Below the pieces are notes generated by a model. That model had not been told where the DNA came from, made no database searches, and saw nothing but the letters and a program-made list of their open reading frames with translations. From the NCBI GenBank assembly GCA_963662265.2, contig CAXXHA010000010.1, positions 311,518 to 375,517 of the forward strand: a DNA stretch of 64,000 bases, read 5' to 3'. Shown in pieces: positions 45,569-64,000 of the stretch. The stretch is from Spirochaetia bacterium. Its GTDB lineage: Bacteria > Spirochaetota > Spirochaetia > CADAEX01. Both the position numbers and the translations under genes were made by a program. Every line of letters starts with the position of its first letter. Positions within the stretch are counted from its first letter, which is position 1.

Positions 45569-45962
45569 AGCAGGCAAGGTAATAAAAATAAACAACAAGG
45601 TCGTATCTGTAAAATGCGAGAAATCTGAACAGTGCAAATCATGCTCATCAACATTCTGTAATGTGAAAGACAGAAGATTTAAGGCTTTAAACAGTAAAAA
45701 TATAGAGCTTCAGATAGATGATACAGTGGAAGTATTTATTTCACCCGGAAAAACTATTTTTTCCAGTTTTGTAGTTCTGATTTTTCCATTAATCATGTTT
45801 ATTCTGGGATATTTCCTGAGCGGCAAGATATTTAATTTTCAGACAGATGCACTTAAAGCGGCAGGAGGGGCGGCTGGTCTTTTCATCGGTTTTATCCTGA
45901 GTTTTCTTTTCAACATGCTGAAAAAGAACCAGAATCTGCCGGTAATAACACGGAAACTTTAA
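45555..45962 (+). CDS. RseC/MucC family membrane protein
   Basis: E.GKV..., C..C....C cluster, two C-terminal TM helices. Confidence 0.8.
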   Translation: MTMYEAGKVIKINNKVVSVKCEKSEQCKSCSSTFCNVKDRRFKALNSKNIELQIDDTVEVFISPGKTIFSSFVVLIFPLIMFILGYFLSGKIFNFQTDALKAAGGAAGLFIGFILSFLFNMLKKNQNLPVITRKL

Positions 45963-46236
45963 ACAGCCTTCCCAATTCAATAATTTACAAACAAATATAA
46001 ATTATTGATTCATGAAAAATACAGAATATTTACTTTCTGGTATTAAGTTTCCAGAAGTACGAGAAATAAAAAAAGCAGGGTCCCGGAAAAGGATTGCCTG
46101 CTTTTTTTCTGAAATCAATTGTTTTAGACTTCAGCTGTAAATATAGTTATTAAAAATTTAAACTTCCATAATGTCTGCAATTGAAACAGTATGCTTTTTT
46201 CATACTGAATTAACAAATTCAGCCAGACAGATTGTG

Positions 46237-46617
46237 CTAGAATTCCACTTCAAACTGCCCTGTTTTAAGCATGATAAGTGTGCAGGCCTCAATATAACTA
46301 ATCCCTGCTTCCTTGAGCGCTTTTTTAAGCTCATCAGATTCTGTTCCCGGGTTTAGTATAACCCTGCCCGGTTTCAGATTCAGGATTTCAGGAATCATCG
46401 CCCCAATCCTCTTTGGCCCCACATAGAGTGTGAGAGTTCCAACTTCATCCTTGATCTCTGAGAGAGAATTAAAAACTTTAAATCCCTCAATCACATCAAG
46501 TGTCGGATGAACAGGTAAAGGTTCATATCCGTGTTTATCAAGCAGTTTAAGCGCTTTATAGGAATATCTTTCCTCATTGTTGCTTGCGCCGAGTACTACG
46601 ACTTTCTTGTTGTCCAT
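46237..46617 (-). CDS. CoA-binding protein (YccU-like)
   Basis: VVLGASNNEERYS, PVHP, ILNPG.E, ACTL. Confidence 0.85.
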   Translation of the reverse strand: MDNKKVVVLGASNNEERYSYKALKLLDKHGYEPLPVHPTLDVIEGFKVFNSLSEIKDEVGTLTLYVGPKRIGAMIPEILNLKPGRVILNPGTESDELKKALKEAGISYIEACTLIMLKTGQFEVEF

Positions 46618-46620
46618 TGT

Positions 46621-46947
46621 TTATTCTCCGAGGTTTTTCTTCAAAAATTCTTTAACCTGATCCTTGGGAAGAGATCCGTTAAAACTGTCCAGAACTTCGC
46701 CGTCTTTGAAAAGAAGAACAGCAGGTATACTCATAACCTTATATTTTGCGGCAACTTCCGCATCATTATCAACATCAATCTTGTAACAGTTTACTTTTCC
46801 CGCATATTCCTCTGAAATTGCATCAAGAACCGGGCTGAACATTTTACAGGGCATACACCAGTTTGCAAAGAAATCTACAAGTGCTGTTTCTCCGCTATTC
46901 AATATTTTTTCTTCAAATGATTTCTGATCCAGTACACTAGCACCCAC
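46621..46947 (-). CDS. trxA: Thioredoxin
   Basis: VDFFANWCMPCK, KIDVD, MSIP, FKDG. Confidence 0.88.
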   Translation of the reverse strand: MGASVLDQKSFEEKILNSGETALVDFFANWCMPCKMFSPVLDAISEEYAGKVNCYKIDVDNDAEVAAKYKVMSIPAVLLFKDGEVLDSFNGSLPKDQVKEFLKKNLGE

Positions 46948-47071
46948 ATTAAGCTCCTTTATATGATTTTCACTATGTTTAGTTTAATAATTTTTAAGAG
47001 AGGAGTCAATTTTATTAAATCTTTTTTCCTTATTATTGCTTTACTGCTTTCCTTCATGTTATTATCAGACC

Positions 47072-47524
47072 ATGTTTAATACGAATTTTATTATGCACCT
47101 ATTTCAGAAAGATTTTATACTTAAACTGTTGTTACTGGCTTTATTATATTCAATAGTCCCTCTGTCAGAAACATTCCTACTCTTTCATTTCGGCGGAATT
47201 TTCGGGAACTATCTTGTTCTTGCAGCTGCAGCAACAACAGGCCTTCTGGGAGTATTGATTGCTTTCAATGAAATAAGCTCAATAATAAAGTCACTTAAAA
47301 TAAAAATAAAAGAAGGTACTTATCCCGGAAAGGAATTTATCAGCCTCACCGGTGTTCTTACAGGCGGCCTTCTTCTTCTCACACCAGGATTTATAACAGA
47401 TTCACTGGGTTTTCTTCTCTTTTTTCCGGTTTTCCGAAACGGCGTCGGCAGGATGATTACTTCAAAAATGGAAAACCGTCTCAAGGAAATCTATGAATAC
47501 CTCAAGCTCTATGACCTTGAATAG
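47072..47524 (+). CDS. fxsA: FxsA family membrane protein
   Basis: VPLSE, TGLLG, GGLLLLTPGFITDSLG. Confidence 0.85.
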   Translation: MFNTNFIMHLFQKDFILKLLLLALLYSIVPLSETFLLFHFGGIFGNYLVLAAAATTGLLGVLIAFNEISSIIKSLKIKIKEGTYPGKEFISLTGVLTGGLLLLTPGFITDSLGFLLFFPVFRNGVGRMITSKMENRLKEIYEYLKLYDLE

Positions 47525-47698
47525 AGCCTGAAACTTATTTAGAAACATTTAAAACTTACAGCAGAACCGACTCACCCTGTGCAGATTTTATTCTTTTTTA
47601 ATTAATAATAATTCAATATATAAGCTTTTATATAAATAAAAAAAGCAGTAAATCTCTTTGAATTACTGCTCATATAATATCAGGCTTAGAAAACTCAA

Positions 47699-48457
47699 TT
47701 ACAGTTTTCTGAGTTTATAGACAAGAATCAGGAGATAGTACCAGAGATAGACAAAAACATTGAAAATTCTTAAAGGATTTTTGAATATTTTTCCAAGTTT
47801 TTCACTGAACCGTGCACCTGATGTTTTTGCAGGCCTGTTTCTTTTTCCCGCAAAAATATCAAAGCTGTTTCCTATCCAGATCGATATCCCCGGGTTGAAA
47901 AAAGATTTATTTCTTGTCAGCCAGTACCTGCCTCCGGGAAGGCCGGAACCTGCCAGTAAAAGGGCAGGGGATGATTTTTTAATTGCAGTAATAATGTTTT
48001 TTTCCATTTCTTTCGGAAAATAGCCTGTACACCGGCCTACAATATTCATCCCGGGATATGATGTTCTGATATTTGATTCTGTTACCTGGAGAACACCTCG
48101 TCTTCCCCCGGCAAGGTATACAGTTTTACCTTTTCTTTCAATTATTCCCAGAAGTTTCAACACAAAATCGAAGGGGAAATACAGTTCGGGAATATGCTCC
48201 CTCTTAAGCATTTCAGCACCCTTGCGGAGCGAGTCGGAAATCGGAAGAACAAGTGCAGCTGATTCCAGGTTATTTCTTAATTCTGTATTAAACCTTGCTT
48301 TAAGAAGATCTTTAAGAGAAACAAGCATTATGTGATGGGTTTTGCCATCTGCAAGAAGCATTTCAACAATCTTTTCCACTTCATCACCAGTAACAGCATC
48401 AACCGGTATTTTTAAAAGGTTTATTCTTTTTCTGCTGCTTATCAGACTGTCTTCCAT
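47699..48457 (-). CDS. WecB/TagA/CpsF family glycosyltransferase
   Basis: RINLL.IPVD, VYLAGG, YPGMNIVG..GYF, G.SFDIFAGKR.R. Confidence 0.8.
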   Translation of the reverse strand: MEDSLISSRKRINLLKIPVDAVTGDEVEKIVEMLLADGKTHHIMLVSLKDLLKARFNTELRNNLESAALVLPISDSLRKGAEMLKREHIPELYFPFDFVLKLLGIIERKGKTVYLAGGRRGVLQVTESNIRTSYPGMNIVGRCTGYFPKEMEKNIITAIKKSSPALLLAGSGLPGGRYWLTRNKSFFNPGISIWIGNSFDIFAGKRNRPAKTSGARFSEKLGKIFKNPLRIFNVFVYLWYYLLILVYKLRKL

Positions 48458-49284
48458 GAATCCCTCTCCAGAATTATTGTTTTTACCGCTGCAGCAGCAT
48501 ATAAGGCTGCTGTTTCTGTCCTTAAAACATTTTCGCCGAGAAAAACCGGTTTAAAATTCTTTTCTTTTAAACAAGCAATCTCTTTATCAGAGAGCCCCCC
48601 TTCCGGTCCAATTATCAGTTTTATTTTTAAAGGAACTGTAAAAAGATACTGGTGGAGAGAAATATTTTCAATAGACTTTTGGTGAAAAAAAAGGCCAATT
48701 TCATTTTTTTCATCAATTTCAAGCGATGTAAGGGAAACAGGTTCTCTAACTTCCGGAAGTGTTTTGGAACCAGACTGCTGAAAAGCCTCCCGCACTATTT
48801 TCATGAACCTTTCATGTTTTCCCTTCCAGCTCTTACTGTCATATTTAACAATTGAAAACTCGCTCATCAGAGGCTGAATTACAGAAACACCAGCCTCTGT
48901 TGCCTGCCTCACAATGAGATCCATCTTTTTCCCCTTGGGAAGGCACTGGCAGAGAATAATTTCAGGTTCACATATATTATTTTCAGATACAAAGCTGTCG
49001 GATTCTCCGGTTTCCATGGTTTCATTATCTTTTTTCTTTCCGGAAGTATCAGCTTCAGCTGAAATATTGTTTTTTCCCTTTCCAGCTCTTTCAAGTTCAA
49101 GTATGACTTTTTTACCGTCTGATCCCTTGAAAACAGCTGTCCAGTAAACTCCATTTATATCCACAGCATTGAAAATATCGCTTTCCCTGTACCTGAGAAC
49201 ATTTTTCAGATAATGGCTGTCATTTTTTCCAAGAACAAAGCATTTTTCGCCATTGAAATCATCGGGAAGAAGAAACTGTTTCAT
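48442..49284 (-). CDS. rsmE: 16S rRNA m3U1498 methyltransferase
   Basis: HYLKNVLR, ATEAGV, EAFQQS, IIGPEGGLS, LGENVLRTETA. Confidence 0.93.
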   Translation of the reverse strand: MKQFLLPDDFNGEKCFVLGKNDSHYLKNVLRYRESDIFNAVDINGVYWTAVFKGSDGKKVILELERAGKGKNNISAEADTSGKKKDNETMETGESDSFVSENNICEPEIILCQCLPKGKKMDLIVRQATEAGVSVIQPLMSEFSIVKYDSKSWKGKHERFMKIVREAFQQSGSKTLPEVREPVSLTSLEIDEKNEIGLFFHQKSIENISLHQYLFTVPLKIKLIIGPEGGLSDKEIACLKEKNFKPVFLGENVLRTETAALYAAAAVKTIILERDSWKTV

Positions 49285-49290
49285 AGAAAA

Positions 49291-49698
49291 CTATTCCCGG
49301 GAAGGCATAAGGGAAATTACTGCAGATCTGTTTCTGGGGCCGTCATATTCGCAGAAATATATCCCCTGCCATGTGCCAAGCAGCAGCTTGCCGTCCATAA
49401 CAGGAATACTCAGGCTGCTTCCGGTAAGAAGTGTTTTTATATGGGCTGCGGAATTTCCCTCAAGATGATGATAATTCTCGTTCCAGGGAACAAGGGAGTT
49501 AAGCTTATAGAGAATATCCCTGACAACATCGGGATCAGCAGCCTCATTTACTGTTACACCTGCAGTGGTATGGGGTATATAAATATTGCACATCCCGTTT
49601 TCAAACTGTTCCGATACAATAATTTTTTTCACCCTGATTGTAATATTAATAAAATCATCTTTTCTATCTGTTTTAACAGAAATTTTATTAACTGTCAT
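49291..49698 (-). CDS. yjbQ: YjbQ family protein
   Basis: PHTTAG.TVNE.ADPDV, H.EGNSAAHIK, LGTWQGIYFCEYDG. Confidence 0.9.
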   Translation of the reverse strand: MTVNKISVKTDRKDDFINITIRVKKIIVSEQFENGMCNIYIPHTTAGVTVNEAADPDVVRDILYKLNSLVPWNENYHHLEGNSAAHIKTLLTGSSLSIPVMDGKLLLGTWQGIYFCEYDGPRNRSAVISLMPSRE

Positions 49699-51104
49699 TG
49701 TTTTACTATTTTCCCTTCTTCAAGAATCTGTACAGCTCTCTGAAGAACAAGATCAAATTCAATATCAAAAATCGGAGGGTTATTATTTGTCTTGTTAAGT
49801 TCATTTCTTATCAGCTTCTTTATTATCCTTTCCTTGAGAACTATTTTGTCAGCAGAAAGGTCAAGTATAAAACGCTGGATATCTGATTCTCCGGGGTTTG
49901 GATTTTTCTTGACAAAATCCTGGATAAGAAATTTTTCAATTATATTTTTATAAGATTCTGATTCTTTATCTGTAAATTCATCCTCTTTAACCTCAAGGTC
50001 AGGATCTATCCCGATTTTATCGATATTAATGCCGTCCGGTGTATAATACCGGGACATGGTGAGCTTGAATCCCCCTTCTCCTATTGTCCTTACCTGCTGG
50101 ACCGATCCCTTGCCGTATGATGTTTCACCGAGAATAAATGCCCTCTTGTTGTCCTTGAGAGCGCCGGACAGGATTTCAGAAGCAGAAGCAGAGCCCTTGT
50201 CTATCAGTACAACAATCGGTAAATCTTCAGGAACCATTGTATTGGTTTCGGCGCGGTAAATCTTGTTTTCGGAAGGTATTTTTGATCTTGTACTTACAAT
50301 GACTTCATCAGACAGGAAATAGTCTGCTATATCTGTAACAGAAGAAAGAAGTCCGCCGGGATTTCCCCTCAGGTCTATTATCACAGATTTAAACCTGTTC
50401 CTTTTGAAATCCTCAAGCGCGTCCTTTACCTTGCCGGCAGTCATTGGCGTAAACTGAATAATCCTAAGGTACCCGATATTCTTATCTATCATACTGCTTC
50501 TTACTGTCGGGACAACAATATTTTCCCTGGTAACATCGAGTGAAAAAACAATATCCTCGCCTCTCAGGAAAGTAATATTGACGTCGCTTCCCGCCTCGCC
50601 TCTTAAAAGCCCCATAACCTCATCAAGAGTCATGTTTTCAGTCGATTTTCCGTCAATCTTTATTATATAGTCTCCTGCAGAGACACCAAGCCGGTATGCC
50701 GGAGTTCCCTCTATCGGTGCAACAACACGGACAAAGGGGAGATGCTCCTCATCATAGCTTGTATCGCCGTAAAACTTGCTTATATACATTCCAACTCCGC
50801 CGAACTTTCCCGTAGTTGTATCTGAAAGATCACTCATATCATTTGCAGTAAGATATACTGAATAAGGATCATCGAGACTCTCAAACATCCCTTTCATCGC
50901 ACCTTCGAAAAGTTTCTTCGGATCAACATCATCAACATAATAATTCTGGATAAATCTCATAACCTGATCAAGAACAGTTATATATTCAACACGTTCCTGA
51001 TTTACATTCTGTGCAGATACAGTTGGAGAAACAGAAAAGAATATAATTCCTATTGAGACAATAACACTAAAAAAAACCCAGTAATATTTTTCTTTTTTAA
51101 ACAT
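49695..51104 (-). CDS. ctpA: Carboxyl-terminal processing protease (S41 with PDZ)
   Basis: LDDPYS, FGGVG, DLRGNPGGLL, SASASEI, GETSYGKGSVQ. Confidence 0.92.
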   Translation of the reverse strand: MFKKEKYYWVFFSVIVSIGIIFFSVSPTVSAQNVNQERVEYITVLDQVMRFIQNYYVDDVDPKKLFEGAMKGMFESLDDPYSVYLTANDMSDLSDTTTGKFGGVGMYISKFYGDTSYDEEHLPFVRVVAPIEGTPAYRLGVSAGDYIIKIDGKSTENMTLDEVMGLLRGEAGSDVNITFLRGEDIVFSLDVTRENIVVPTVRSSMIDKNIGYLRIIQFTPMTAGKVKDALEDFKRNRFKSVIIDLRGNPGGLLSSVTDIADYFLSDEVIVSTRSKIPSENKIYRAETNTMVPEDLPIVVLIDKGSASASEILSGALKDNKRAFILGETSYGKGSVQQVRTIGEGGFKLTMSRYYTPDGINIDKIGIDPDLEVKEDEFTDKESESYKNIIEKFLIQDFVKKNPNPGESDIQRFILDLSADKIVLKERIIKKLIRNELNKTNNNPPIFDIEFDLVLQRAVQILEEGKIVKQ

Positions 51105-51300
51105 AGTTCCCCCTGTATATAAAATATTCTATTGCAGGCTTGTATTTGTCAAGAATATTAAAATATCTGAAAATAAACGGTTTTAAAATATTTTTTAACA
51201 CTATCTATTTTTTATCATATATAGCAATCTTTTCAAATACAGTTTTTTTAATGAAAAGCTTATTGACCTGCTGTTTTATGACCCGTAAACTACTATTTAA

Positions 51301-51678
51301 ATGAAAAAACTATTTATCACAGGGATAATCTGGGAAATTGTCAGATTCACAACTCTTTTTCTGACAACTGCATCAAAAATAAATGGAGATCTGATACTTT
51401 TTTTCACATCTCAGCAGTTTATTTTGTTTTACATCTATTATTTTCTTATTCACGATACAGAAAAATACTGTCAGTATATGAAAATACTTGCAGCTGCTAA
51501 ATTCCTGAGCCTTTTTACCGGCATTTTATATATTGTAAAACTGTTTATAAAAAGCACTTTTTCTGTGGCAGATATTCTGTATCCTGCAAACATAGTTTTT
51601 ATAGATGGATTGTTTTTTATTGTGCTTATATATGTTGTTATAAGATACTTTAAAAAAGTACAGGAATCAGAGGAATAA
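51301..51678 (+). CDS. Hypothetical membrane protein
   Basis: 125-aa hydrophobic ORF ending 3 bp before the next gene. Confidence 0.55.
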   Translation: MKKLFITGIIWEIVRFTTLFLTTASKINGDLILFFTSQQFILFYIYYFLIHDTEKYCQYMKILAAAKFLSLFTGILYIVKLFIKSTFSVADILYPANIVFIDGLFFIVLIYVVIRYFKKVQESEE

Positions 51679-51681
51679 ACA

Positions 51682-52821
51682 ATGCAGGTAATACCAATAG
51701 CAAGCGGAAAAGGGGGAGTCGGAAAGACTCTTGTTGCGGCAAATCTGGCAATAGCCCTGGGAAAATCAGGAAAAAGAGTAGTACTGGCTGACCTTGACCT
51801 GGGAGGATCAAATCTCCACCTGGTTCTTGGAACAACCGGTCTTAACGCGGGGATAGGGAATTATATAAATACCCCTGATATTGATTTTGAATCTATTGTC
51901 TATGAAACAGATTATAAAAATGTCAGATTTATACCGGGCGATTCAGAAATTCCGGGTATGGCAAACCTGAAAGCTTCCCAGAAAAAAACGCTTATCAAAA
52001 AGCTGTTCTCTCTTGACTGCGACTACCTTATTGTCGACCTGGGAGCAGGGACAAACTACAACACAATTGATTTTTTTCTCGCATCGGGACAGGGGATTAT
52101 AGTAACAACTCCGGCCCTTACTGCAACGCTTAATGCATATGTATTTATAAAACATTCAATATTCAGGATCATGGATACCTCTTTCAGAAGAAAAACTGTG
52201 GCAAGAGGCTATATTGACAGACTAAAAGAGGACAGCAGTCTTATCCAGAAAATATATATACCTAAAATTCTTGAAAACATAAAAAGGGAAGACCCTGAAA
52301 GCTATAACAGGTTTGAGGCAAAAATAAGGAATTTCTCACCTCTGCTTATACTAAATATGGTTGAGGATCCCAGGCAGTCTGCAATTGCGGGGAAACTGAG
52401 AAGATCCTGCAGGGAATACCTCGGACTAGACCTTGAACACCTTGGTGTAATTTACAGGGATGAACTTCAGAATATTGCGCTCAATTCAAGACTCCCTATA
52501 GTAAGCTATAAACCAAGATCTGTGCTTTCCCAGGCAGTTTTCAGGATAGCAGATAAACTTCAGATTGATTTCAGGGCTGAAACAAGTGCTGATGAAGATT
52601 ATTTTGATGAAACATACCTGAATGCGGAAATAGAGGCTCAGAATGACTTCAGTACAAAAATGCAGTCAATGGAGGAGCTTCTGCACAGCGGAACTCTGAA
52701 TTCATCCGATATGATAGATATTATCAAGAGCCAGCAGATTGAAATCACAGAATTAAAAAAGGAAAACAACCTTTTAAAAAACAAACTTGTTAAAGCATCT
52801 GAACAGGGATACAGGATTTAA
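51682..52821 (+). CDS. MinD/FlhG-like P-loop ATPase with C-terminal extension
   Basis: ASGKGGVGKT deviant Walker A, DLDLGG.NL, IVDLGAG. Confidence 0.85.
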   Translation: MQVIPIASGKGGVGKTLVAANLAIALGKSGKRVVLADLDLGGSNLHLVLGTTGLNAGIGNYINTPDIDFESIVYETDYKNVRFIPGDSEIPGMANLKASQKKTLIKKLFSLDCDYLIVDLGAGTNYNTIDFFLASGQGIIVTTPALTATLNAYVFIKHSIFRIMDTSFRRKTVARGYIDRLKEDSSLIQKIYIPKILENIKREDPESYNRFEAKIRNFSPLLILNMVEDPRQSAIAGKLRRSCREYLGLDLEHLGVIYRDELQNIALNSRLPIVSYKPRSVLSQAVFRIADKLQIDFRAETSADEDYFDETYLNAEIEAQNDFSTKMQSMEELLHSGTLNSSDMIDIIKSQQIEITELKKENNLLKNKLVKASEQGYRI

Positions 52822-52926
52822 TTACATCAGATTCAGTCAGAAATTCCCAGCAGTAAGCGGTTCTTCTGTTTGAATCTGGTTTTTTATTATTCTGTTTATA
52901 CCATGTGAATCAGCGGGAGAAAGCAA

Positions 52927-53940
52927 ATGCAGTTATTCATAAACTACCCTTCATGGATTAAACCGGAAATAATACCCGGATTTCCGGTAAGATGGTACGG
53001 CCTTATGTACCTGATAGCCTTTGTTATCGGGTACATACTATTTAAAAAGCAGGTAGCAGAACGGAAACTTGAAATCAGCGATGATGATATATCCAACCTC
53101 TTTTTCTGGATAATACTGGGAATTCTCCTGGGAGGAAGAATTTTTTCAACACTTGTATATGATACAACAGGAAAGTACTGGGCAAACCCGCTGCTTATCT
53201 TCTGGCCTTTTGACAGCAACTTCAAGTTTACAGGGCTGCAGGGAATGTCATATCACGGGGGACTTCTCGGAGGCATAACCGCAATGATAATTTACTGCAG
53301 GAAAAAGCATCTTCCGGTTGTTGTTACAGGAGATATGCTGGCAGTATCTATCCCGCTCGGTTATACATTCGGAAGGCTTGGAAATTTCATAAACGGGGAA
53401 CTTTACGGAAGGGTTACTTCGGCAGACTGGGGTATGATTTTTCCCTATGCAAGAAAATTCCCTGTATCAAGCGGCTGGGTTGTGGAAATTGCAGAGAAAG
53501 CAGGGATAGACCTTGCAGCGGCAGGAAACTATGTAAATTTGCCCCGCCATCCGAGCCAGCTTTACGAGGCGTTTTTTGAAGGAATTTTTCTCTGGGCTGT
53601 AATGTGGTTTATATTAAGAATGAGAAAACATGCCCCAGGGGAGTTAATGGGTTCATATGTACTCGGATACGGAGTAATCCGCTTCTTCATTGAATACTTC
53701 AGGGAACCGGATGCAGATATCGGCTTTATTCTAGAACTGTCAGGAAAAAACAATCCAATCCACACTTTGAACTCTTTTTTCAACTTTTCAATGGGACAGC
53801 TTCTCTGCTTTCTGATGATTCTGACAGGAGCAGCTGTTATCGCTGTATTCAGAAAAATAGAGCTTGCTAAAACCGAAGCAGAAGGTAACAAGCTTCAGAA
53901 AGACAGTCAGCTAAAAAAGAAGAAGAAAAAAAGACATTAA
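52927..53940 (+). CDS. lgt: Prolipoprotein diacylglyceryl transferase
   Basis: RWYGLMY, GMSYHGG, GRLGNFINGELYGR, RHPSQLYE, RFFIEYFREPD. Confidence 0.95.
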   Translation: MQLFINYPSWIKPEIIPGFPVRWYGLMYLIAFVIGYILFKKQVAERKLEISDDDISNLFFWIILGILLGGRIFSTLVYDTTGKYWANPLLIFWPFDSNFKFTGLQGMSYHGGLLGGITAMIIYCRKKHLPVVVTGDMLAVSIPLGYTFGRLGNFINGELYGRVTSADWGMIFPYARKFPVSSGWVVEIAEKAGIDLAAAGNYVNLPRHPSQLYEAFFEGIFLWAVMWFILRMRKHAPGELMGSYVLGYGVIRFFIEYFREPDADIGFILELSGKNNPIHTLNSFFNFSMGQLLCFLMILTGAAVIAVFRKIELAKTEAEGNKLQKDSQLKKKKKKRH

Positions 53941-54027
53941 AATCACAAAAAAATAATCAGTTCTTCTGTTCCGTTTGCATCACGACTTTTTTTAACTTAG
54001 AATTTAACCTGTAAAAGGGAAATCAAT

Positions 54028-56454
54028 ATGGTGCAGAAGTTTCAGAAGAATAAAGAACAGGAAAATGACTACCGGGAATATATAAAATCTGTTCTCTGCT
54101 GTGAAAATGAAGATGAAAAAATATGCAGGGAAATATTATCCCATAAAAAATTCATGGACAGCCAGATGCACAGAGATGTTGATATTGATGTTGCAATACT
54201 CGACTATATCACAAGCATAAATAAGGATATCCAGATTCCGTCTGTCTTTGACAGCCTGAACATCAGAAAACTTTATCATCCTTCCAGAAACCACTACAAA
54301 AAACTAAAGCCCTTCGATACATCAGATCTGTCAAGAGATTTAAATACAGAAATTGAAAGGGCGCACCGCTACGGCTCACAGCTCTCTGTTCTGATGTTTG
54401 ACCTTGATGAAAGCATTGATCCTGATCCCGATTCAGATGATATTTCAGAATTCTTTTTTTCAAATATAAGCCGCCATGTCCGCCGCACAGATACAGTATA
54501 TTCATATGAAAAAAACCACTATGTTCTTATACTTAGTGAAACAAATATAAACGATGCAGTTAACACTGCATTTAACCTTCAGAACTGGTTTCAAAATGAG
54601 AAGTTTAAAAAATCCTCTCCAAAAATGATAAATATCGGAATAGCAGCATACGGAATGCATGGAATTGATTCAGACCACAAACTCATTTCAGCTGCAGATA
54701 AATCTCTGTGTAAAGCCAAAGAATCGGGCGGCGGCAGGATTTGCCTCTATCAGGACAGGAAAATTTTTGATATTGAAAAACCGAAGAACAGCTGTATAAA
54801 CATACAGAAAACCTCTGAAAGGCTCAGCTTCAAGGGTCTCCCGATTCATAAGGGAATGGCTGCCGGTAAAATATTCATCTACAACGACCTGCTCTCACAT
54901 GAACACGAATCATACGATATAAGTGAGGAAAACCTGGAAAAGGAGCTCTCAAGAATCATAACTGCAATAGAAAATGTTGAAAAAGATCTTTCCGATGTCG
55001 AGCACCTGGTAAACAGGGACCTGAGCGAAGAATATGCTGCAATTTTCCAGGCGCACCGCCTTATTCTGAAGGACAGCCAGCTGTTCAATGAAATTAAAAA
55101 AGATTTGTATGAGAAAAAAATAAACGGTGAGAAAATTGTAAGGGATGTATTCAAGAGATGGGAAAAGAGATTCCTTGCATTCGATGATGAAATATTCAGA
55201 AACAAGTCACAGGATATTGCAGATATCTCTTCCAGGAGAATCAAAGAGCTTACAGGGATAGACAGTCATATACTGGAAGAAGCTCCGGAAGATTCAATTA
55301 TATTTGCAAACCGCCTTCTCCCGTCAGATACAGTCAATATAAATAAAAACAACGTCAAGGCAATTGTAACTAAAGAGGGGGGTAAATTCTCACATACAGC
55401 AATTCTCTCAAAAGCAATGAATATTCCTCTTGTCATCATTGAAAACCTTGACCTGAGCAGCCTTCACAGAGAGGAAACAGTTATTGTTAACGGGGAAACA
55501 GGAGATGTTGTTATAAATCCGGACCAGGAGGAAATGGAAAGCGCGGAAAAGCAGCTTGAAGAAACAACAGGCAGGGAAAGCTTATCCGGAATAATGCAGA
55601 AATCAGAAAAGATCTATTACAGGGGAGAAGAAGTCTTTATAAGCGCGGCAGCATCAAGTCCTGATGAAACCGAGGAGGCTTTATTGTATGATGCATACGG
55701 TATAGGGCTTTTCAGAATGGAGGTTCTTTATCTTTCGCAATATACATTACCGGAAGAAAAGCTTCTTGTCAGTGAGATAGAAAAAACAATAAAAAAGTTT
55801 AAAAGACGGGAATCTGTTATCAGGCTCACAGATATAGGCGGAGATAAAACTCTTCCATACATAAACATTACAGAAAGGTATAATTCCAACCTTGGTGTAA
55901 GAGGGGTTCGCCTCCTGCGCAGCTATCCCGCCATTCTGGAAACTCAGCTTCGCTCATTGATTAAAATCGGGCAGAAATATGATATAAAAATAATGGTTCC
56001 CATGGTTACGCTTCCGGAGGACATGGTTTTTATCAAAGAAATGATTTTAAAACTCAAAAAAGCGATGAAAAAAGAAAAAGACATACCAATCGGTGCAATG
56101 ATAGAAACACCTTCTTCAGTAATTACCATTGATGAGATCCTGGAACTGAGTGATTTCGTTAGTATAGGATCAAATGACCTTATCCAGTACACAATGGCGG
56201 CAGACAGGGAAAAACTCTCAGTCAGCAAATATTATGAAAAAGGCAATGTTGTTGTTCAGGAATTCATAAGAAAAGTCATTGAAAAGGCTGCTTCCAAAAA
56301 CATTCCGGCATATCTCTGCGGAGAACTTGCCCAGAATACAGATTTCACAAAAAGCCTGCTTGATTTAGGATGCAGAATATTTACAGTAGCCCCGGTCATG
56401 ATTCCGGCAGTAAGAAACGCAGTTATAAAGGCATCTGAACAGGAAGAAGCCTGA
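54028..56454 (+). CDS. Fusion of a degenerate GGDEF domain to PTS Enzyme I (PEP-protein phosphotransferase)
   Basis: EIERAHRY...LSVLMFDLD, RRTD, ADKSLCKAKESG (GGDEF fold); EI motifs SHTAI, GIGLFRME, DIGGDK, MIETP, SIGSNDL, LCGELA. Confidence 0.85.
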   Translation: MVQKFQKNKEQENDYREYIKSVLCCENEDEKICREILSHKKFMDSQMHRDVDIDVAILDYITSINKDIQIPSVFDSLNIRKLYHPSRNHYKKLKPFDTSDLSRDLNTEIERAHRYGSQLSVLMFDLDESIDPDPDSDDISEFFFSNISRHVRRTDTVYSYEKNHYVLILSETNINDAVNTAFNLQNWFQNEKFKKSSPKMINIGIAAYGMHGIDSDHKLISAADKSLCKAKESGGGRICLYQDRKIFDIEKPKNSCINIQKTSERLSFKGLPIHKGMAAGKIFIYNDLLSHEHESYDISEENLEKELSRIITAIENVEKDLSDVEHLVNRDLSEEYAAIFQAHRLILKDSQLFNEIKKDLYEKKINGEKIVRDVFKRWEKRFLAFDDEIFRNKSQDIADISSRRIKELTGIDSHILEEAPEDSIIFANRLLPSDTVNINKNNVKAIVTKEGGKFSHTAILSKAMNIPLVIIENLDLSSLHREETVIVNGETGDVVINPDQEEMESAEKQLEETTGRESLSGIMQKSEKIYYRGEEVFISAAASSPDETEEALLYDAYGIGLFRMEVLYLSQYTLPEEKLLVSEIEKTIKKFKRRESVIRLTDIGGDKTLPYINITERYNSNLGVRGVRLLRSYPAILETQLRSLIKIGQKYDIKIMVPMVTLPEDMVFIKEMILKLKKAMKKEKDIPIGAMIETPSSVITIDEILELSDFVSIGSNDLIQYTMAADREKLSVSKYYEKGNVVVQEFIRKVIEKAASKNIPAYLCGELAQNTDFTKSLLDLGCRIFTVAPVMIPAVRNAVIKASEQEEA

Positions 56455-56586
56455 ATCAGAATTTACAGTTTTTAGTGAAACTGTTTCTCCGGAAATTAAA
56501 TCACATGTTTCAAGCAAAAAAAATCCCTGCCGCCGGCAACAAGCAAACACACTGCCGTGACAGGGATTATATTATAATTTATCAGA

Positions 56587-57039
56587 TTACATCAGAACAA
56601 TATTATTGTTTTTGCAGTCTTCCCTTACGTTATCAGGCCAGAGACTTGCCTGAACTTCGCCGATATGCACTTTTCTGAGGAAAAACATGCAGAGCCTTGA
56701 CTGGCCGATACCGCCGCCGATAGAGTAGGGCAGTTCACAGTTTAAGAGCCTCTTGTGAAACATGAGTTCTTTTCTGTCTTCAAGGTTTCTTATTTTAAGC
56801 TGCTTCTCTAGAGCTGTCTCATCAACCCTGATCCCCATTGAAGATATTTCAAAACATCTTTCGAGAACAGGGTTCCATACAATAATATCACCGTTAAGAC
56901 CGTTGTATCCGTCACTGTTTGGTGTACTCCAGTCATCATAGTCAGGAGCTCTTCCGTCATGTATTTTACCGTCTGAAAGCTCTCCCCCGATTCCTATGAT
57001 AAAAACAGCCCCGTATTCCTTTGCCGCAAAAGATTCCCG
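56587..57039 (-). pseudogene. asnA: Aspartate-ammonia ligase, 3' part only (cut at the chimeric junction)
   Basis: [33 protein letters not shown]...[14 protein letters not shown]...[10 protein letters not shown]; the N-terminal half is replaced by unrelated sequence. Confidence 0.9.
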
Positions 57040-58033
57040 TACGAAAACGTGGGTCGGTGATCGCTTTCTGCAGCAGTTCTACTGCACGTTGAGACTTCTG
57101 CTTGTAGTAGGGCTTAATCACATCCGAACTCAGTCTAAGCAGGTCGCCATTACCAATGATATGGTTCGCCAGCGCTGGACCAACACTGCCTGGCGCTAAG
57201 CTAATAATGCCATTCATATTGGTCAAAGCCTGGGTAATCGCTTCATTAGCGATCACAATACCGCAGCGTACGCCCGGTAATCCCAGTTTGGATAAGCTCA
57301 TACACAGAATCGTATTGTCATTCCAGAAAGGTTCAACGTCTTCAAAAATGATGTTCGGGAATGGCAAACCGTAAGCGTTATCGATGATTAGCGGGATGTT
57401 GTTTTCACGCGCGAGCTTGTCTAGTTTACGGATTTCTTGATCCGTGAGTACGTTACCTGTTGGGTTGGTTGGGCGAGATGCACAGATAGCAGCGACGGAG
57501 TCATCGACTTTTAGCTTTTCAAAATCAACGTGGTATTTAAACAGGCCATTATCAAGTAATTCGATTTCCGGGTGGTACGAGACGAAGATGTCTTCATCAA
57601 TCCCCGCATCGCCATAACCAATATACTCTGGCGCGATCGGTAACAGCACTTTTTTGTGTGAACCGTCCGGCTGTTGCCCGGCGAGTAAATTAAATAGGTA
57701 GAAGAAACCGCTTTGGCTACCATTAGTCAGACTGATGTTTTTCTCACTGATGTTCCAACCGTAGGTTTCACGGAACAGCTTAGCCAATGCTTTAACAAAC
57801 GCATCTTTGCCTTGTGGACCATCATAGTTAGTCAGTGCGGCGATGAGTTCTCCGCTGGCGAGCATTTCCTCACTGGCTTGGTGAAAGTAATCGAGCATGG
57901 CAGGAATGGCGGCGGGATTTCCTCCACCGAGCATGATGGCACCTGGTGTGCGCAGACCATCATTTAAATCATCCATTAACTGCGTGATACCTGAATACTG
58001 ATTAAATTTTTCACCAAACTTTGAGTACTGCAT
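57040..58033 (-). pseudogene. avtA: Valine-pyruvate aminotransferase, C-terminally truncated at the junction (Vibrio-type)
   Basis: SGITQLMDDL, LGGGNPA, SRPTNPTGN, DNAYG, SLSKLGLPG.R.G; similarity ends at AITDPRFR. Confidence 0.9.
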
Positions 58034-58259
58034 GTTTACTTATACCTAATTCATTGTGATTGCTTTGTGTAATATTGCTGACTGAGCTTCAGCTTATAGT
58101 GTAATACTTGACCTTACCCTAATGTTATTACGACGCAAAGTGTGAATTCACTCGAAGAAGAAAAAAGTGTCTGTTCAGACCAGATGAATGGATTATAAAG
58201 TGAAAAGAGGATTAAAAAGGGAAGCCTACGCTTCCCTTGCTGGTGGAGAGATAGATGTG

Positions 58260-60344
58260 CTATTCACCAGTGTAGACAATAAGTACTTTGTCATCCTGAT
58301 ACTGACGCTCGAATGCGTAGTACCCTTCCTGATTACGGGTAATGTGCTGACCTTGAGCAACAGCAGGGTGACGTTTACGGAACTCGCCCAGTTTTTGCCA
58401 GTGCTGCAGTAAGTCTTCACGCTCGCCATGAATCTTATCCCATGGCATGTCGGAGCGGGTTCCCTGGTGAGTATCGGATCCAGTATGACCAAAGTCTCGG
58501 GCTATTTCGTCGCCGTAATAGATCTGAACCGCACCCGGAGCCAACATTAACGCATTTGCGGCGCGTGCCTGATCATCAAAGCTGCGACTACGGGCAGACC
58601 AGAACAGTTGCGTGTCATGAGAAGAAAGGTAACTCAACACGTTGAACTCTGGGTCCTTATTGATTTGCTCTGCATAGCGTCGGTAATCACTGTCGAGGTT
58701 GGCAAAGCATTTCAGCGCTTTTGGTGCGACATCTGACTGGAATTCGAAATTGATAATTGAATCGAATCCGTTATCAAAGTACGGGCTTTTCACCACACTG
58801 TGCGCCCAGACTTCGCCCGTCATCCAAAACGGCGAATCATCCAGTGCTTTGTCAGGATGGTTTTGCTTCCACTCTGCCAGCGCTTGTGTGGTGCTGGTTT
58901 TGAGTTCTGACCACGCTTCCATTTCTACGTGCTTCGCGGTATCGACACGGAAGCCATCAATGCCATATTCACGAACCCAATCGGATAACCAGGTGATCAG
59001 ATGTTCGCGCGGTGTCTTTTGTTCATCACGTGCAGCAGTGTCTTTGTTGTGGAAGAAGTTTGGCAAGCCGGTTTTCTCTGTTGATCCGGTTTTCAGGTCC
59101 GGTAAGTAGTTCAGAGACATGCTGATATCGTTGTACCCCGGCGCATCGTAATTGCCGATGTCGGTTCGAATCCAGTCTTTACCCCACCATTTTTCCCATG
59201 CTTCACCGTCACCATATTTGATGTAATCGTTGAAGCTGTGCCAACTCTGGCCTGATTTTGGTTGCCAGTCGGTCCATTTTTCACCCAGCACTTGTTGCGC
59301 TTCTTGGTCATCAAGGTAAAGCTGACCAAAGCCAAACTCCTGCATATCGGCCAGTGTTGCGTAGCCAGTGTGATTCATTACGACATCCCAAATGATACGG
59401 ATACCTTTGTTGTGTGCGGTATCGATGAAGGTTCGCAGCTCATCTTCGGTGCCCATATTGGCATCGAGCTTGGTCCAATCTTGATGGTAGTAACCATGAT
59501 AGCCGTAGTGTTTGAAATCGCCTTTGTCGCCGCCGCCAACCCAGCCGTGAATTTGCTCTAGCGGTGACGTAATCCAGATGGCGTTAACACCGAGAGAGTC
59601 AATGTAATCGAGTTTTTTGGTCAGACCCGCTAAGTCGCCACCGTGGAAGGTGCCGATTTCGTATTTACCGTCTTTGCTGCGGCCATAGCTGTTGTCGTTG
59701 TCTGGATTCCCATTGTAAAAACGGTCGGTCATGACGAAATAAACCGTGGCGTTATCCCAACTGAATGGTTTATTCGCCTGTTGTTCAACCTCCTCTAGCA
59801 GTAGCAGCCCCTGACTCATTGGGCCTGGCTGAAGGGTGACTGCACCATTGGTTACGGTTGTCTCTTGCCCAGTCAGAGCATCTCGAACCAAGGTGCCATC
59901 ACTAAAGGTTTCCGCGACATTGATGGTTTTAGCTGTGTCACTTGCGACAGGGCAAGTGAAGCTGGTTACCTGAGACTGTTTTGGTTTGATCTTAACCGTC
60001 AGCTCATTGGTTGTTGGGTTGAGCGTAAACTGGTAGGTATTGGCTTTGAAAATGCGCAGCGGCATAGTGGCATCCGTTGCACAGTTATCCATTTTTAATG
60101 GTGTATTAAATTTGATGCGGTTTTCTTCTGCCAGAGCGAAGCGACTGCCACAGCTTTGTTTGCTGTCGGCAATCGTGAAAGTGTAATTGCCTTTATCCAG
60201 TTTTTGTTCTGCGACGAGTAACCCCTGATCGTTTTGTTCGAACATGGCTTTGTCATCACCGACGCTTAATATAATGGCATTTTCTGGAATTTGGCTGCAG
60301 GCACTAAGTAGACCAATAGAGAGTGCGAGAATTGTTTTTTTCAT
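58260..60344 (-). CDS. Lipoprotein alpha-amylase (GH13, MalS-like)
   Basis: LSAC lipobox, YFVMTDRF.NG, GGDLAG, DVVMNH, GFRVDTAKH, GEVW, SSHD. Confidence 0.9.
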   Translation of the reverse strand: MKKTILALSIGLLSACSQIPENAIILSVGDDKAMFEQNDQGLLVAEQKLDKGNYTFTIADSKQSCGSRFALAEENRIKFNTPLKMDNCATDATMPLRIFKANTYQFTLNPTTNELTVKIKPKQSQVTSFTCPVASDTAKTINVAETFSDGTLVRDALTGQETTVTNGAVTLQPGPMSQGLLLLEEVEQQANKPFSWDNATVYFVMTDRFYNGNPDNDNSYGRSKDGKYEIGTFHGGDLAGLTKKLDYIDSLGVNAIWITSPLEQIHGWVGGGDKGDFKHYGYHGYYHQDWTKLDANMGTEDELRTFIDTAHNKGIRIIWDVVMNHTGYATLADMQEFGFGQLYLDDQEAQQVLGEKWTDWQPKSGQSWHSFNDYIKYGDGEAWEKWWGKDWIRTDIGNYDAPGYNDISMSLNYLPDLKTGSTEKTGLPNFFHNKDTAARDEQKTPREHLITWLSDWVREYGIDGFRVDTAKHVEMEAWSELKTSTTQALAEWKQNHPDKALDDSPFWMTGEVWAHSVVKSPYFDNGFDSIINFEFQSDVAPKALKCFANLDSDYRRYAEQINKDPEFNVLSYLSSHDTQLFWSARSRSFDDQARAANALMLAPGAVQIYYGDEIARDFGHTGSDTHQGTRSDMPWDKIHGEREDLLQHWQKLGEFRKRHPAVAQGQHITRNQEGYYAFERQYQDDKVLIVYTGE

Positions 60345-60500
60345 TGTGTCCTTCCCCCGAATAAACAGATCTTTTATAACAAAAAGAAGCCTCTACAATC
60401 CGAGCGGTGCACCAACAAGTTAAACCTCTCTCACCCTACAAATTTTTGTCTTGTTCACAAAATGAGTAATAATTCCCGCTAATCTCATCTTTTGGCCAAC

Positions 60501-60528
60501 AAAAAAGGGAAGCTGATGCTTCCCCTTT
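60501..60528 (-). terminator. Intrinsic terminator after glyS
   Basis: GGGAAGC-loop-GCTTCCC with T6 on the minus strand. Confidence 0.65.
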
Positions 60529-60576
60529 GGTTATCTTGTGATTTCTTTTTCAGGCAGTAACTTAGTTATAGGTTAC

Positions 60577-62637
60577 TTATTTTTGAAGAAGAGAGATGTC
60601 GGCGATCTGTAGGAACAGGTTGCGCAGATTGTTCAGCAGGGTCAGACGGTTTTTCTTAAGTGCTTCGTCGTCTGTCATTACCATTACGTTATCGAAGAAT
60701 GCATCTACCGGCTCACGCAGGTCCGCAAGTTTGCTTAGGGCTTCTTGGTAGTTACCCGTTGCAAATGCTGGCTCTAGTGCTTCAGTCATCACTTCAACGC
60801 TTTCTGCTAACGCTTTTTCTGCGTCTTCTTGTAGAAGAGATAAATCGATTTCTTCAGCCAGTTCGCCGTCGAATTTCGCCAAGATATTACCTACACGTTT
60901 GTTCGCTGCCGCCAGAGATTCTGCCGCTTCTAGCTCACGGAAGTGAGATACCGCTTTTACGCGTTGATCGAAATCTGCTGGTTTTGTCGGGCGACGTGCC
61001 AGTACAGCATGGATAATATCGACACTGAAGCCTTCGTCTTTATACCATGCATTAAAACGACCCAGCATGAATTCGATAACATCGTGTTCAACGTTGTCGT
61101 TAGTCAGCTTAGAGCCAAATTGTACTTTTGCTTCACGGATCAGGTCGAGCAGGTCTAGGTTATAGCCATTTTCAACGATGATACGCAGTACGCCCAGAGA
61201 AGCACGACGAAGTGCAAATGGGTCGCTGCCTTTTGGAGCTTGACCAATACCGAAGATACCAACGATGGTGTCCAGCTTGTCAGCCATTGCCACTGCAGAA
61301 GAAATCGCGGTGCTTGGCAGAACATCACCAGCGAAACGCGGCATGTACTGCTCGTATAGGGCTAGTGCAACTTGCTCATCTTCACCATCGTGAGTTGCGT
61401 AATGCATACCCATAACACCTTGAGTATCCGTGAATTCGAATACCATTGAGGTCATTAGGTCACACTTCGCCAACAAGCCTGCGCGAGTCGATTTATCAAC
61501 ATCCGCACCAATTTGTTTCGCGATGTAGCCTGCAAGTGCAGTAATGCGATCGGTTTTGTCTTTGATTGTGCCCAGTTGCTTTTGGAAAATCGCGTTTTCC
61601 AGTTCAGGAAGGCGGTCAATCAGTGGACGCTTGCGGTCGGTGTTGAAGAAGAACTCGGCATCGGCAAGACGTGGACGAACCACTTTCTCGTTACCTTCGA
61701 TGACGTAGCGAGGCTCTTTCGATTCAATGTTCGACACAAAGATGAAATTAGGCAGTAGTTTCTTGTCTTCAGAGTAGACAGGGAAGTACTTCTGGTCACC
61801 TTTCATGGTGTAAACCAATGCTTCAGAAGGCACTTTCAGAAATTCTTCTTCGAATTTCGCTGTTAGTACCACTGGCCATTCAACCAGAGAGGTAACTTCT
61901 TCTACCAGGTCATCTTCTAGATCAGCGATACCGCCAACCGCGGCTGCCGCTTTTTTGGCGTCAGCTAGGATGATAGCTTTACGAGCTTCGTAATCCGCCA
62001 TAACTTTACCGCGTTCTTCAAGAATCGCCGGGTATTGCTCAGCAGAGTCGATGGTAAATTCTTGCTCGCCCATAAAGCGGTGACCGCGGATAGTTCGGCC
62101 AGATGCGACGCCAAGGATTTCGCCTTCGATGAGGTCACTGCCCATTAGTATGGTTAGCGTTTTAACCGGACGAATAAATTGAGTCGTCTTGTTACCCCAA
62201 CGCATTGGTTTTGCAATAGGTAGGTTTGCCAGTGCTTTTGCTGCTAGTTCAACGATAAGATCGGAAGTATTAATGCCTTTAACTTCTTTCTCAACATAGA
62301 TTTTTTGCGTCTTCTCATCGACGTTAACGTTACTTAAGTCAACACCATTCTTCTTCGCCCAACCTTCAGCAGCCTTGGTTGGTGAAAGGTTTTCATCAAA
62401 GGCAACAGACTTTGTTGGGCCCATGATTTTAAGAGTTTTATCTTCTTGACCTTCAGCCAACGCTGCCACTTTAAGTGCCAGACGGCGAGGTGCTGCAAAC
62501 CACTTGATGCCTTCATGAGCAAGCTCTGCGCTTGCTAGCTCAGCTTCAAAGTTTGCTGCGAATGCTTCAGCCAGAGTACGAAGTTGCGTTGGTGGTAGCT
62601 CTTCCGTACCCAGCTCGATTAGAAATTCTTTTGCCAT
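60577..62637 (-). CDS. glyS: Glycyl-tRNA synthetase beta subunit
   Basis: [43 protein letters not shown]-terminal DALR domain. Confidence 0.97.
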
Positions 62638-62651
62638 GTTAGATCGACCCC

Positions 62652-63572
62652 TTACGCGTTATCTTCTTTTTTACACATTGGGAAGCCAAGTGCTTCACGT
62701 GATGCGTAGTATGCTTCTGCTACTGACTTAGTCAGGTTACGGATGCGCAGGATGTAGCGTTGACGCTCAGTTACTGAGATCGCTTTACGTGCATCTAGCA
62801 GGTTGAACGCGTGGCCTGCTTTTAGGATGCGTTCGTAAGCAGGAAGTGGAAGAGGCTTTTCAAGCGCAACGAGCTGTTGACACTCTTTCTCACACTGTTC
62901 AAAGAAGCCGAATAGGAAATCAACGTCAGCATGCTCGAAGTTGTAAGTTGATTGTTCCACTTCGTTTTGGTGGAAGATATCACCATACGTGACTTTGCTG
63001 CCGTCTGGTGCGATATTCCAAACTAGGTCGTAAACCGAATCTACTTCCTGGATGTACATAGCAAGTCGCTCGATACCGTAAGTAATTTCGCCAGTGACTG
63101 GTTTACACTCAAGGCCACCAACTTGCTGGAAGTAAGTAAACTGTGTCACTTCCATGCCGTTTAGCCATACCTCCCAGCCTAGACCCCATGCGCCTAGAGT
63201 TGGGTTTTCCCAGTTGTCTTCGACGAAACGGATATCGTGTACAAGTGGGTCAATACCAAGAACTTCAAGGGAACCAAGGTACAACTCTTGGATATTGTCT
63301 GGCGATGGTTTTAGCGCTACTTGGAATTGGTAGTAGTGCTGAAGACGGTTAGGGTTTTCACCGTAACGGCCATCAGTAGGACGACGTGAAGGTTGTACAT
63401 AAGCTGTCGACATTGGCTCTGGACCAATTGCTCGTAAACAGGTCATTGGATGAGAGGTACCCGCTCCAACTTCCATATCGAGTGGTTGAACAACGGTACA
63501 ACCATTTTGAGCCCAATAATCCTGCAGCGCGAGGATCATTCCCTGGAAGGTTTTGATATCGTATTTTTGCAT
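62652..63572 (-). CDS. glyQ: Glycyl-tRNA synthetase alpha subunit
   Basis: [39 protein letters not shown]. Confidence 0.97.
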
Positions 63573-63853
63573 AAGTCAGGTTCGCGCGATTCTCTTGTTA
63601 CTCGTAAATTCGCCATCTATGCTGAGTTTTTCAACTCTAACAACGGTGATAAAGAGTAATTACGGTTGAATAAATTAACAATCTAGTATAACCAGATATT
63701 GAGCATGGGAGTAGAGCTAATCTTGATTAATTCATGGGCGATTTTCTCCTTTAATGAATATTTACCACGTTATCTGCTGTATTTTTCTTAAAAGGGAGCT
63801 TTCTGCTGCTTTGGTGCTTGAGATGCATAACAAGGTTGGCTAGAATTGCGCCT

Positions 63854-63978
63854 GTCTTTGGGGAGTAGCTTACCCGGTGAAGTTTCCATTTCATCAGGTT
63901 CGTTCGTCAACATAATTGGTGCAAAATCACCATGGCGCTCGAGACTCGAAGCCTTTCGAGTTTAGCAAGACCTTAGAC
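63854..63978 (+). ncRNA. yybP-ykoY Mn2+ riboswitch
   Basis: GGGGAGTAGC...TCGTCAACA...GGCG...GCAAGACC consensus blocks closed by GTCT/AGAC; the controlled gene lies outside the window. Confidence 0.8.
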
Positions 63979-64000
63979 AAATCACACGAACCGGGGTGGG

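Follow-up and report, generated by a model that had tools for sequence, protein, structure and literature searches.

A complete Enzyme I fused to a degenerate GGDEF-type domain in a Spirochaetia genome, and the wider family to which it belongs

The phosphotransferase system (PTS) reports on carbon and phosphoenolpyruvate (PEP) status, and cyclic di-GMP (c-di-GMP), a second messenger, decides between motile and sessile life. Could the two be joined within one polypeptide? This question is raised by a gene at positions 54028-56454 (forward strand) of a 64,000-nucleotide (nt) stretch of a Spirochaetia bacterium assembly (GCA_963662265.2, contig CAXXHA010000010.1, positions 311,518 to 375,517), hereafter the window. 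A first-pass annotation, made from the sequence alone, had described its product as PTS Enzyme I (EI) fused to a catalytically dead GGDEF domain with an intact inhibitory site (I-site), and had proposed that c-di-GMP gates its phosphotransferase activity. We found that the product, here P0001, is a real fusion of a complete EI and a degenerate diguanylate-cyclase-type domain. From sequence comparisons, we judge it a little short of an even chance that the dead domain has been retained to regulate EI, which it would tune by binding c-di-GMP at its RxxD motif.

An Enzyme I joined to a GGDEF-type domain

P0001 is encoded by one uninterrupted open reading frame (ORF) of 808 aa, which begins at the first ATG past a stop and has a GGGA-type Shine-Dalgarno-like stretch about 8 nt 5' of its start. 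The protein has four parts: a three-helix N-terminal module (residues 1-95, 54028-54312), a GGDEF-fold domain (residues 102-235, 54331-54732), a disordered linker (residues 253-268, 54784-54831), and a full EI, all on the forward strand. Pfam GGDEF (PF00990) matched residues 102-235 with 36.4 bits (cut-off 23.8, E 5.6e-9), while among NCBIfam models TIGR01417 (PTS_I_fam) scored 405.9 bits (cut-off 341.7) and TIGR00254 (GGDEF) 46.1 bits (cut-off 37.4). Because these E-values are far below chance, a chance ORF is ruled out. Full-length homologues were found at 48-75% identity. The linker has a predicted local distance difference test score (pLDDT) below 50 at residues 254-268 in an AlphaFold2 model of residues 1-268, and at residues 253-260 in the full-length model. 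Recomputing the motif coordinates, the ORF length, the helical N-terminus of about 95 aa, and both domains reproduced the first-pass annotation throughout.

The EI part comprises three domains in the usual order. The N-terminal, HPr-binding helical domain (residues 269-392, 54832-55203) matched Pfam PF05524 (PEP-utilisers_N, E 5.5e-21) and aligned to solved EI structures. It is followed by the mobile phospho-histidine domain (residues 420-492, 55285-55503; PF00391), with the catalytic His456 at 55393-55395, and by the C-terminal PEP-binding and dimerisation TIM-barrel (residues 522-801, 55591-56430; PF02896, PEP-utilizers_C, E 2.7e-70), with Cys764 at 56317-56319. Residues 268-805 aligned end to end with the solved EIs 2hro (E 5.1e-77), 2wqd, and E. 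coli 2hwg (E 1.4e-62). In the alignment with 2hro, GGKFSHTAIL falls on ggrtshsaim, and the phospho-His and Cys motifs are in register. Every EI motif listed in the first-pass annotation was in place: SHTAI (455-459, containing His456), LFRME (561-565), IRLTDIGGDK (598-607), LGVRGVR (622-628), MIETP (691-695), SNDL (715-718), AADR (724-727), and LCGE (763-766, containing Cys764). His456 was invariant in all 52 rows of the alignment used for the full-length model (A5), where Cys764 and the PEP/Mg motifs were at least 90% conserved. P0001 therefore has the ordered domains, the above-threshold TIGR01417 score, and the catalytic His and Cys of a PTS Enzyme I, although it did not reach the narrower PtsI model NF008382 (279.7 versus 824). 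With every catalytic signature kept, the EI half looks catalytically complete.

The fold of the preceding domain was recognizable both by sequence and by predicted structure. In a phmmer search of the Protein Data Bank (PDB), residues 106-242 aligned to solved GGDEF domains, including those of DosC (4zve, E 4.8e-10) and PleD (1w25, E 5.9e-4). The AlphaFold2 model of residues 1-268, built from a 45-row alignment, had a pLDDT of 78.6 and a predicted template-modelling score (pTM) of 0.76, and consisted of three helices followed by a GGDEF-type alpha/beta domain. A Foldseek search of the PDB with this model gave 88 matches at E ≤ 1e-3, and all of the matches listed were GGDEF-domain (diguanylate-cyclase-type) entries. 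The top match was the GGDEF domain of DosC (4zve), with a target-normalised TM-score of 0.81 and a root-mean-square deviation of 2.1 Å over 153 columns.

Despite this fold, the active site (A-site) is dead, as the first-pass annotation had claimed. EKNHY (residues 161-165, 54508-54522) occupies the position of GG[DE]EF and sits on the GGDEF motif of DosC in the PDB alignments. The GTP/Mg-binding segment was compared with 34 canonical GGDEF domains in an alignment (A3) that was deepened with ordinary GGDEF domains from 38 loci of a genome scan. Where these domains read DxDxFKxxNDxxGHxxGD, P0001 reads DLDESIDPDPDSDDI, with a 5-residue deletion. The decayed segment, FDLDESIDPDPDSDDI (54397-54444), is likewise five residues shorter than the DIDxFKxxNDxxGHxxGD it replaces when intact relatives of P0001 are included in the comparison. 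P0001 thus has the fold of a diguanylate cyclase with neither the GG[DE]EF motif nor the GTP/Mg segment and, because both are gone, the domain is unable to make c-di-GMP.

The I-site is better preserved. RRTD (residues 152-155, 54481-54492) is an RxxD motif, the primary I-site motif, with R152 and D155 as its defining residues. It sits on RSSD of DosC and lines up as well with the RxxD of the GcbC domain in its c-di-GMP-bound form (5euh). Exactly five residues (TVYSY) separate RRTD from EKNHY, which is the canonical I-site spacing. P0001 therefore shows the combination typical of degenerate-GGDEF receptors, a dead A-site with RxxD five residues upstream. The earlier description of the I-site as intact held for this motif and its spacing but not for an additional I-site arginine on the following helix, which is an asparagine in P0001.

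An artefact, either two genes misjoined in assembly or annotation or a pseudogene, was considered as an explanation for the fusion. The window does hold a join of unrelated sequences at ~57040, and a dnaX-like gene that lies in three frames indicates that its sequence quality is imperfect. However, the join is 585 nt past the stop codon of the fusion gene, whose frame of 808 codons has no break. Moreover, 13 of the 120 matches listed in our first database search carried GGDEF and EI domains, at 38-100% identity; one of these proteins is encoded on a 3.79-Mb chromosome, and another is named for Oceanispirochaeta. The identical domain order thus occurs in independent assemblies, and the domain boundary (residues 240-290) can be aligned across homologues. 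A genome scan found an orthologue with 75% identity in the chromosome of a Spirochaetia metagenome-assembled genome (L001). The only fused relatives in that scan were this gene and two fragments (L002 and L003), the other 38 loci being ordinary GGDEF domains.

Gene order is shared between L001 and the window from 44888 to 57040. The shared order comprises thioredoxin, FxsA, a WecG-type transferase, RsmE, UPF0047, an S41 protease, a small membrane protein, a MinD/ParA-like ATPase, lgt, the fusion gene, and a convergent asnA. The fusion therefore recurs in independent genomes and metagenomes with its synteny kept, and the concern in the first-pass annotation that it might be an assembly artefact can be set aside. 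Conservation effectively refutes the artefact explanation, to which we assign a very low probability.

A wider family with repeated decay of the active site

To place P0001 among its relatives, we searched 1.84 billion representative proteins with a profile of the fused proteins. At least 19 proteins of 812-910 aa matched the whole profile in one stretch (from profile position 16 or earlier through 798 or later), along with several fragments. According to Pfam, 24 of 29 long matches carry GGDEF and EI domains. Most fused matches scored 105-159 bits for GGDEF, versus 36 bits in P0001. Among the 35 family rows with a GGDEF-like region, 19 read GG[DE]EF, every one of which has RxxD, and 16 are degenerate: seven rows of the clade containing P0001 (the window clade) together with P0127, P0131, P0132, P0135, P0137, P0141, P0151, P0273, and P0274. 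In those intact rows that the family motif alignment displays, the FK..ND..GH..GD segment has its canonical form. Judging by these motifs, intact members such as P0128 (158.7 bits for GGDEF) look like cyclases.

Two fused matches have named sources in Omnitrophota: the intact P0272 comes from Candidatus Aadella gelida, and P0274, which is degenerate (GKKEF), from Candidatus Omnitrophota bacterium. Fused matches with source names were annotated merely as phosphoenolpyruvate--protein phosphotransferase. The profile matches also included a protein of another architecture, P0217 (946 aa), in which a complete EI is followed by PAS, HisKA_2, and HATPase_c, that is, an EI fused to a histidine kinase.

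We inferred a tree from the EI part of 66 rows, using an IQ-TREE quick search with support from the Shimodaira-Hasegawa-like approximate likelihood ratio test (SH-aLRT) only, and rooted it on six ordinary EIs. The family formed one clade of 60 rows apart from the ordinary EIs (SH-aLRT 100, a quick-search value in a tree with eleven rows of deviant composition). This clade includes 25 short rows with no GGDEF domain, which may partly be N-terminally truncated gene calls. Eight fragments (P0006, P0013, P0014, P0018, P0144, P0155, P0159, and P0223) were left out of the tree but are present in the motif alignment. Seven window-clade rows (SH-aLRT 100) were nested in a 32-row clade (SH-aLRT 97) that also holds ten intact-GGDEF rows. 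Since the window clade nests among intact rows, its degenerate state is derived, and the starred branches of the tree force at least five changes in the degenerate label. P0001 is thus a degenerate offshoot of a wider, apparently undescribed family whose members mostly combine a canonical GGDEF domain with EI.

Decay has not affected all sites of the domain alike. RxxD is kept in 14 of the 16 degenerate family rows, and RxTD is invariant in all ten window-clade rows of the motif alignment. Across ten degenerate rows representing about nine lineages, D155 is kept in nine and R152 in eight, whereas the catalytic positions (K130, N133, D134, G136, R159, G161, G162, and the acidic pair) are kept in just 2-4 of the ten. 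The catalytic positions in this comparison are those conserved in 14-16 of 16 intact rows. The window clade has 36 invariant columns out of the 155 of the domain, among them R152, T154, D155, and the helix EIERAxRYG. Such uneven retention is the strongest reason to think that the I-site still serves some purpose.

The N-terminal module offers another view of the family. The AlphaFold2 model places its helices at residues 2-23, 27-47, and 53-64, and its conserved motif (HK..MD..L.R.VGI.VA.LDY) is common to the whole family, to two members with no GGDEF domain (P0015 and P0016), and to a set of GGDEF-PilZ proteins. Pfam DUF4032 was considered as an identity for the module and rejected, as the match covered only its C-terminal end and fell below the cut-off (19.4 versus 23.8 bits). 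A protein atlas search with residues 1-100 gave no usable match. In the GGDEF-PilZ proteins (P0283, P0284, and P0286-P0289), a homologous helical module is followed by GGDEF and a C-terminal PilZ domain, and P0128 is 35% identical to P0283 over 255 aa (E 2e-48). PilZ is a known c-di-GMP receptor domain. Because the same N-helical-GGDEF module carries either EI or PilZ, EI takes the place of a c-di-GMP receptor domain, and we regard this swap as a lead toward a c-di-GMP role.

Possible roles of the fusion, and the rest of the window

How might a dead GGDEF domain act on EI? In the mechanism we favor, the domain would be retained as a regulatory input and would most likely still bind c-di-GMP at RxxD. 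EI dimerises through its C-terminal domain and, because it works as a dimer in this way, binding would be expected to move its two N-terminal halves relative to each other. The shift in their seating could adjust the autophosphorylation of His456 from PEP, or the ease with which HPr gains access, and hence transfer to an HPr/NPr-type partner encoded elsewhere. Such a role would be analogous to that of the GAF domain of EI-Ntr. In intact relatives, one polypeptide probably also couples the state of PEP and EI to c-di-GMP synthesis. The window contains two further loci for c-di-GMP enzymes, a GGDEF ORF at 6764-7252 (reverse strand) and a PAS-GGDEF-EAL gene at 33550-35871 (reverse strand; 774 aa, EAL 248.8 bits, GGDEF 165.8 bits). 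The presence of the latter implies that the genome runs a c-di-GMP network. A predicted homodimer of residues 1-268, given c-di-GMP at two molecules per dimer, scored 0.62, but one unrelated control reached 0.53, and the prediction counts neither for nor against the mechanism.

Several observations weigh against this mechanism. The window clade has an asparagine (AFNLQ) where the AERIR of DosC has its first arginine, which we take to be the third primary I-site residue (PleD R390, PelD R402), and this position is variable in intact family members too. Two degenerate lineages have lost RxxD, P0132 (LNGI) and P0137 (HSSD). RxxD in the intact members is explained by ordinary product inhibition, and in degenerate ones it may persist for structural reasons or by inertia. 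In P0015 and P0016 the helical module and EI are present but the GGDEF domain is absent, so some members can dispense with it. Although the individual domains were confidently predicted in the full-length model, its pTM was 0.47 and the arrangement of the domains relative to one another was not confidently predicted. Finally, a scan of 59 other ORFs of the window revealed no HPr, EII, or HprK domain, and the 57 kb of native sequence contain no PTS gene besides this one, EIIA-Ntr included.

Some of these observations are what would be expected if the GGDEF-like domain were blind to nucleotides. It would then be a folded spacer or dimerisation scaffold joining EI to the helical module, which would be the true sensor or a stalk for the dimer, and the protein would be the lineage's EI, probably of a regulatory PTS. 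P0015 and P0016 fit this explanation well, as they are nested in the family clade beside the degenerate P0127, together with P0017 (542 aa), which starts at the EI part. The two lineages without RxxD and the asparagine at the third I-site position point the same way, and decay of the A-site on at least five occasions suggests weak selection on the chemistry of the domain. Yet a mere scaffold does not readily account for the retention of R152 and D155 in 8-9 of ten degenerate rows, versus 2-4 of ten for catalytic residues. The domain is also conserved in the window clade (48-75% identity, with its 36 invariant columns), and its best-conserved polar positions are not obviously core residues. We consider a scaffold unlikely on balance, but it is the main rival to a c-di-GMP input.

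The composition of the family allows the direction of control to be turned around. Since most members appear to be canonical cyclases, RxxD is first of all an inherited cyclase feature serving product inhibition, and across the family the coupling may be as much a matter of EI acting on c-di-GMP synthesis as of the reverse. One version of this idea is that the dead domain of P0001 is an output rather than an input. As a docking surface, it would pass the phosphorylation or PEP state of EI to another protein, such as an active cyclase, a phosphodiesterase, or an effector, keeping the ancestral direction from EI to cyclase without catalysis. Cyclase activity needs GGDEF dimers, EI dimerises through its C-terminal domain, and the prevalence of canonical cyclases joined to EI fits EI as the regulatory partner of a cyclase. 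Known PTS/c-di-GMP links, in the parts of the literature available to us, act by protein-protein contact, for example that of EIIAGlc with PdeS and CsrD (PMC10333796, PMC6877527). However, no candidate partner gene adjoins the fusion gene, whose neighbors are lgt, the MinD/ParA-like ATPase, the small membrane protein, and asnA. We think a docking role improbable.

A broader proposal combines both directions. The family would be a direct two-way junction between the PTS and c-di-GMP within one polypeptide. In intact members, cyclase activity would follow the cycle of dimerisation and phosphorylation that PEP drives in EI. Wherever RxxD is kept, also in the catalytically dead spirochaete form, c-di-GMP at the I-site would gate the flow of phosphoryl groups from PEP to a regulatory PTS. 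This proposal is speculative, and we consider it less likely than not. If it did, P0001 would be the first pure "c-di-GMP-gated Enzyme I".

The surroundings of the fusion gene provided few regulatory clues. An Rfam scan of the whole window found the signal recognition particle (SRP) RNA and tRNAs only, with no riboswitch near the fusion gene and none for c-di-GMP. A consensus scan for promoters and terminators returned counts no higher than in shuffled sequence. It placed a terminator-like hairpin at 56526-56543 (reverse strand), between the convergent EI gene and asnA fragment and oriented for asnA, although the number of such sites is at chance level. Three same-strand genes lie directly 5' of the fusion gene (51301-53940, forward strand) and are syntenic in L001. 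The first two encode a 125-aa membrane protein without a family and a MinD/ParA-like ATPase of 379 aa, which has a long coiled extension at its C terminus; the third is lgt.

Two unrelated sequences meet in the window at ~57040 (57039-57042), with the right-hand part spanning 57041-64000. The asnA fragment (56590-57039, reverse strand) covers just positions 185-328 of the 330-position TIGR00669 model, and the adjoining avtA fragment (56969-58033, reverse strand) just positions 1-332 of a 417-position model. GC content changes there from ~0.38 to ~0.47, and synteny with L001 ends. The right-hand part holds avtA, an alpha-amylase (NF007057, 1573.8 bits), glyS, and glyQ. The join reflects either the concatenation of contigs or a chimera made in assembly.

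Other irregularities occur near the opposite end of the window. The dnaX-like gene (3799-5063, reverse strand) is spread over at least three overlapping frames (4707-5063, 4238-4834, and 3799-4332), as would result from frameshifts, from indel errors, or from decay into a pseudogene. Immediately upstream, on the same strand, are the SRP RNA (5637-5735) and five tRNA genes (5748-6529). Farther along, the 163-aa GGDEF ORF at 6764-7252 starts only at position 32 of the Pfam profile. It lies ~300 nt downstream of a gene for a 765-aa Reg_prop (two-component regulator propeller) protein (7549-9843, reverse strand), and the two may be one split or truncated diguanylate cyclase gene.

Comparison with known systems

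Our search of the openly available full-text literature found no paper describing a GGDEF-EI fusion or the binding of c-di-GMP to EI. This agrees with the statement in the first-pass annotation that no characterised protein with this architecture was known. The portions of PMC1183210, PMC12943098, and PMC10118264 that we consulted contained nothing on the point. Separate regulatory EI groups (Ntr and R), a further group T, and EI fusions have been described, according to the sections available of PMC2405797. The links between the PTS and c-di-GMP that we encountered, in sources seen in part, were indirect: crosstalk of EIIAGlc with CsrD and the phosphodiesterase PdeS (PMC10333796), contact of EIIAGlc with CsrD or a phosphodiesterase (PMC6877527), and transcriptional effects of c-di-GMP on the PTS through Cra (PMC10100716).

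A family in which EI is welded to a cyclase, or to a receptor derived from one, would turn this into a direct link that could be tested biochemically on a single purified protein. Known parts are combined here in a new architecture, and its family context, with cyclase-EI fusions, repeated decay, and a sister architecture with PilZ, holds more interest than the gene by itself. The family also forms a natural series, from an intact cyclase, through a dead domain with RxxD and a dead domain without it, to loss of the domain, which is a suitable set for dissecting which half controls which.

The closest functional parallel is EI-Ntr (PtsP), in which a complete EI likewise stands behind an N-terminal domain of a small-molecule-sensor type in one chain, and the family would add a second kind of sensor-equipped EI beside it. 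P0001 differs in having no GAF match, and it scored 256.8 bits against the PtsP model NF008283 (cut-off 583). Its putative sensor is instead a GGDEF fold with a helical module, and most of its relatives would be enzymes (cyclases) rather than pure sensors. Multiphosphoryl transfer proteins (EIIA-HPr-EI) also carry EI as a module of a larger polypeptide, as in P0263 (EIIA-Man/HPr/EI). However, those fusions join consecutive members of the phosphoryl relay, whereas P0001 joins EI to a second-messenger domain.

On the GGDEF side, PelD and PopA are degenerate-GGDEF receptors for c-di-GMP, and P0001 resembles them in its fold, its dead A-site, and its RxxD five residues upstream. It departs from them in the asparagine at the third I-site arginine and in its predicted output, a fused phosphotransferase in place of a polysaccharide synthase partner or a proteolysis adaptor. 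The canonical I-site cyclases PleD, DosC, and GcbC have the fold of P0001, whose identity to solved GGDEF domains was 21-27% in Foldseek alignments, and share RxxD and the EIERAHRYG helix. In contrast to these cyclases, P0001 is without GG[DE]EF and the FK..ND..GH..GD loop, and hence is no cyclase. The uncharacterised N-helical-GGDEF-PilZ proteins have both the helical module and the GGDEF domain in common with the EI family, but they are shorter (~390-415 aa), their GGDEF domain is intact, and they end in PilZ where P0001 and its relatives carry EI.

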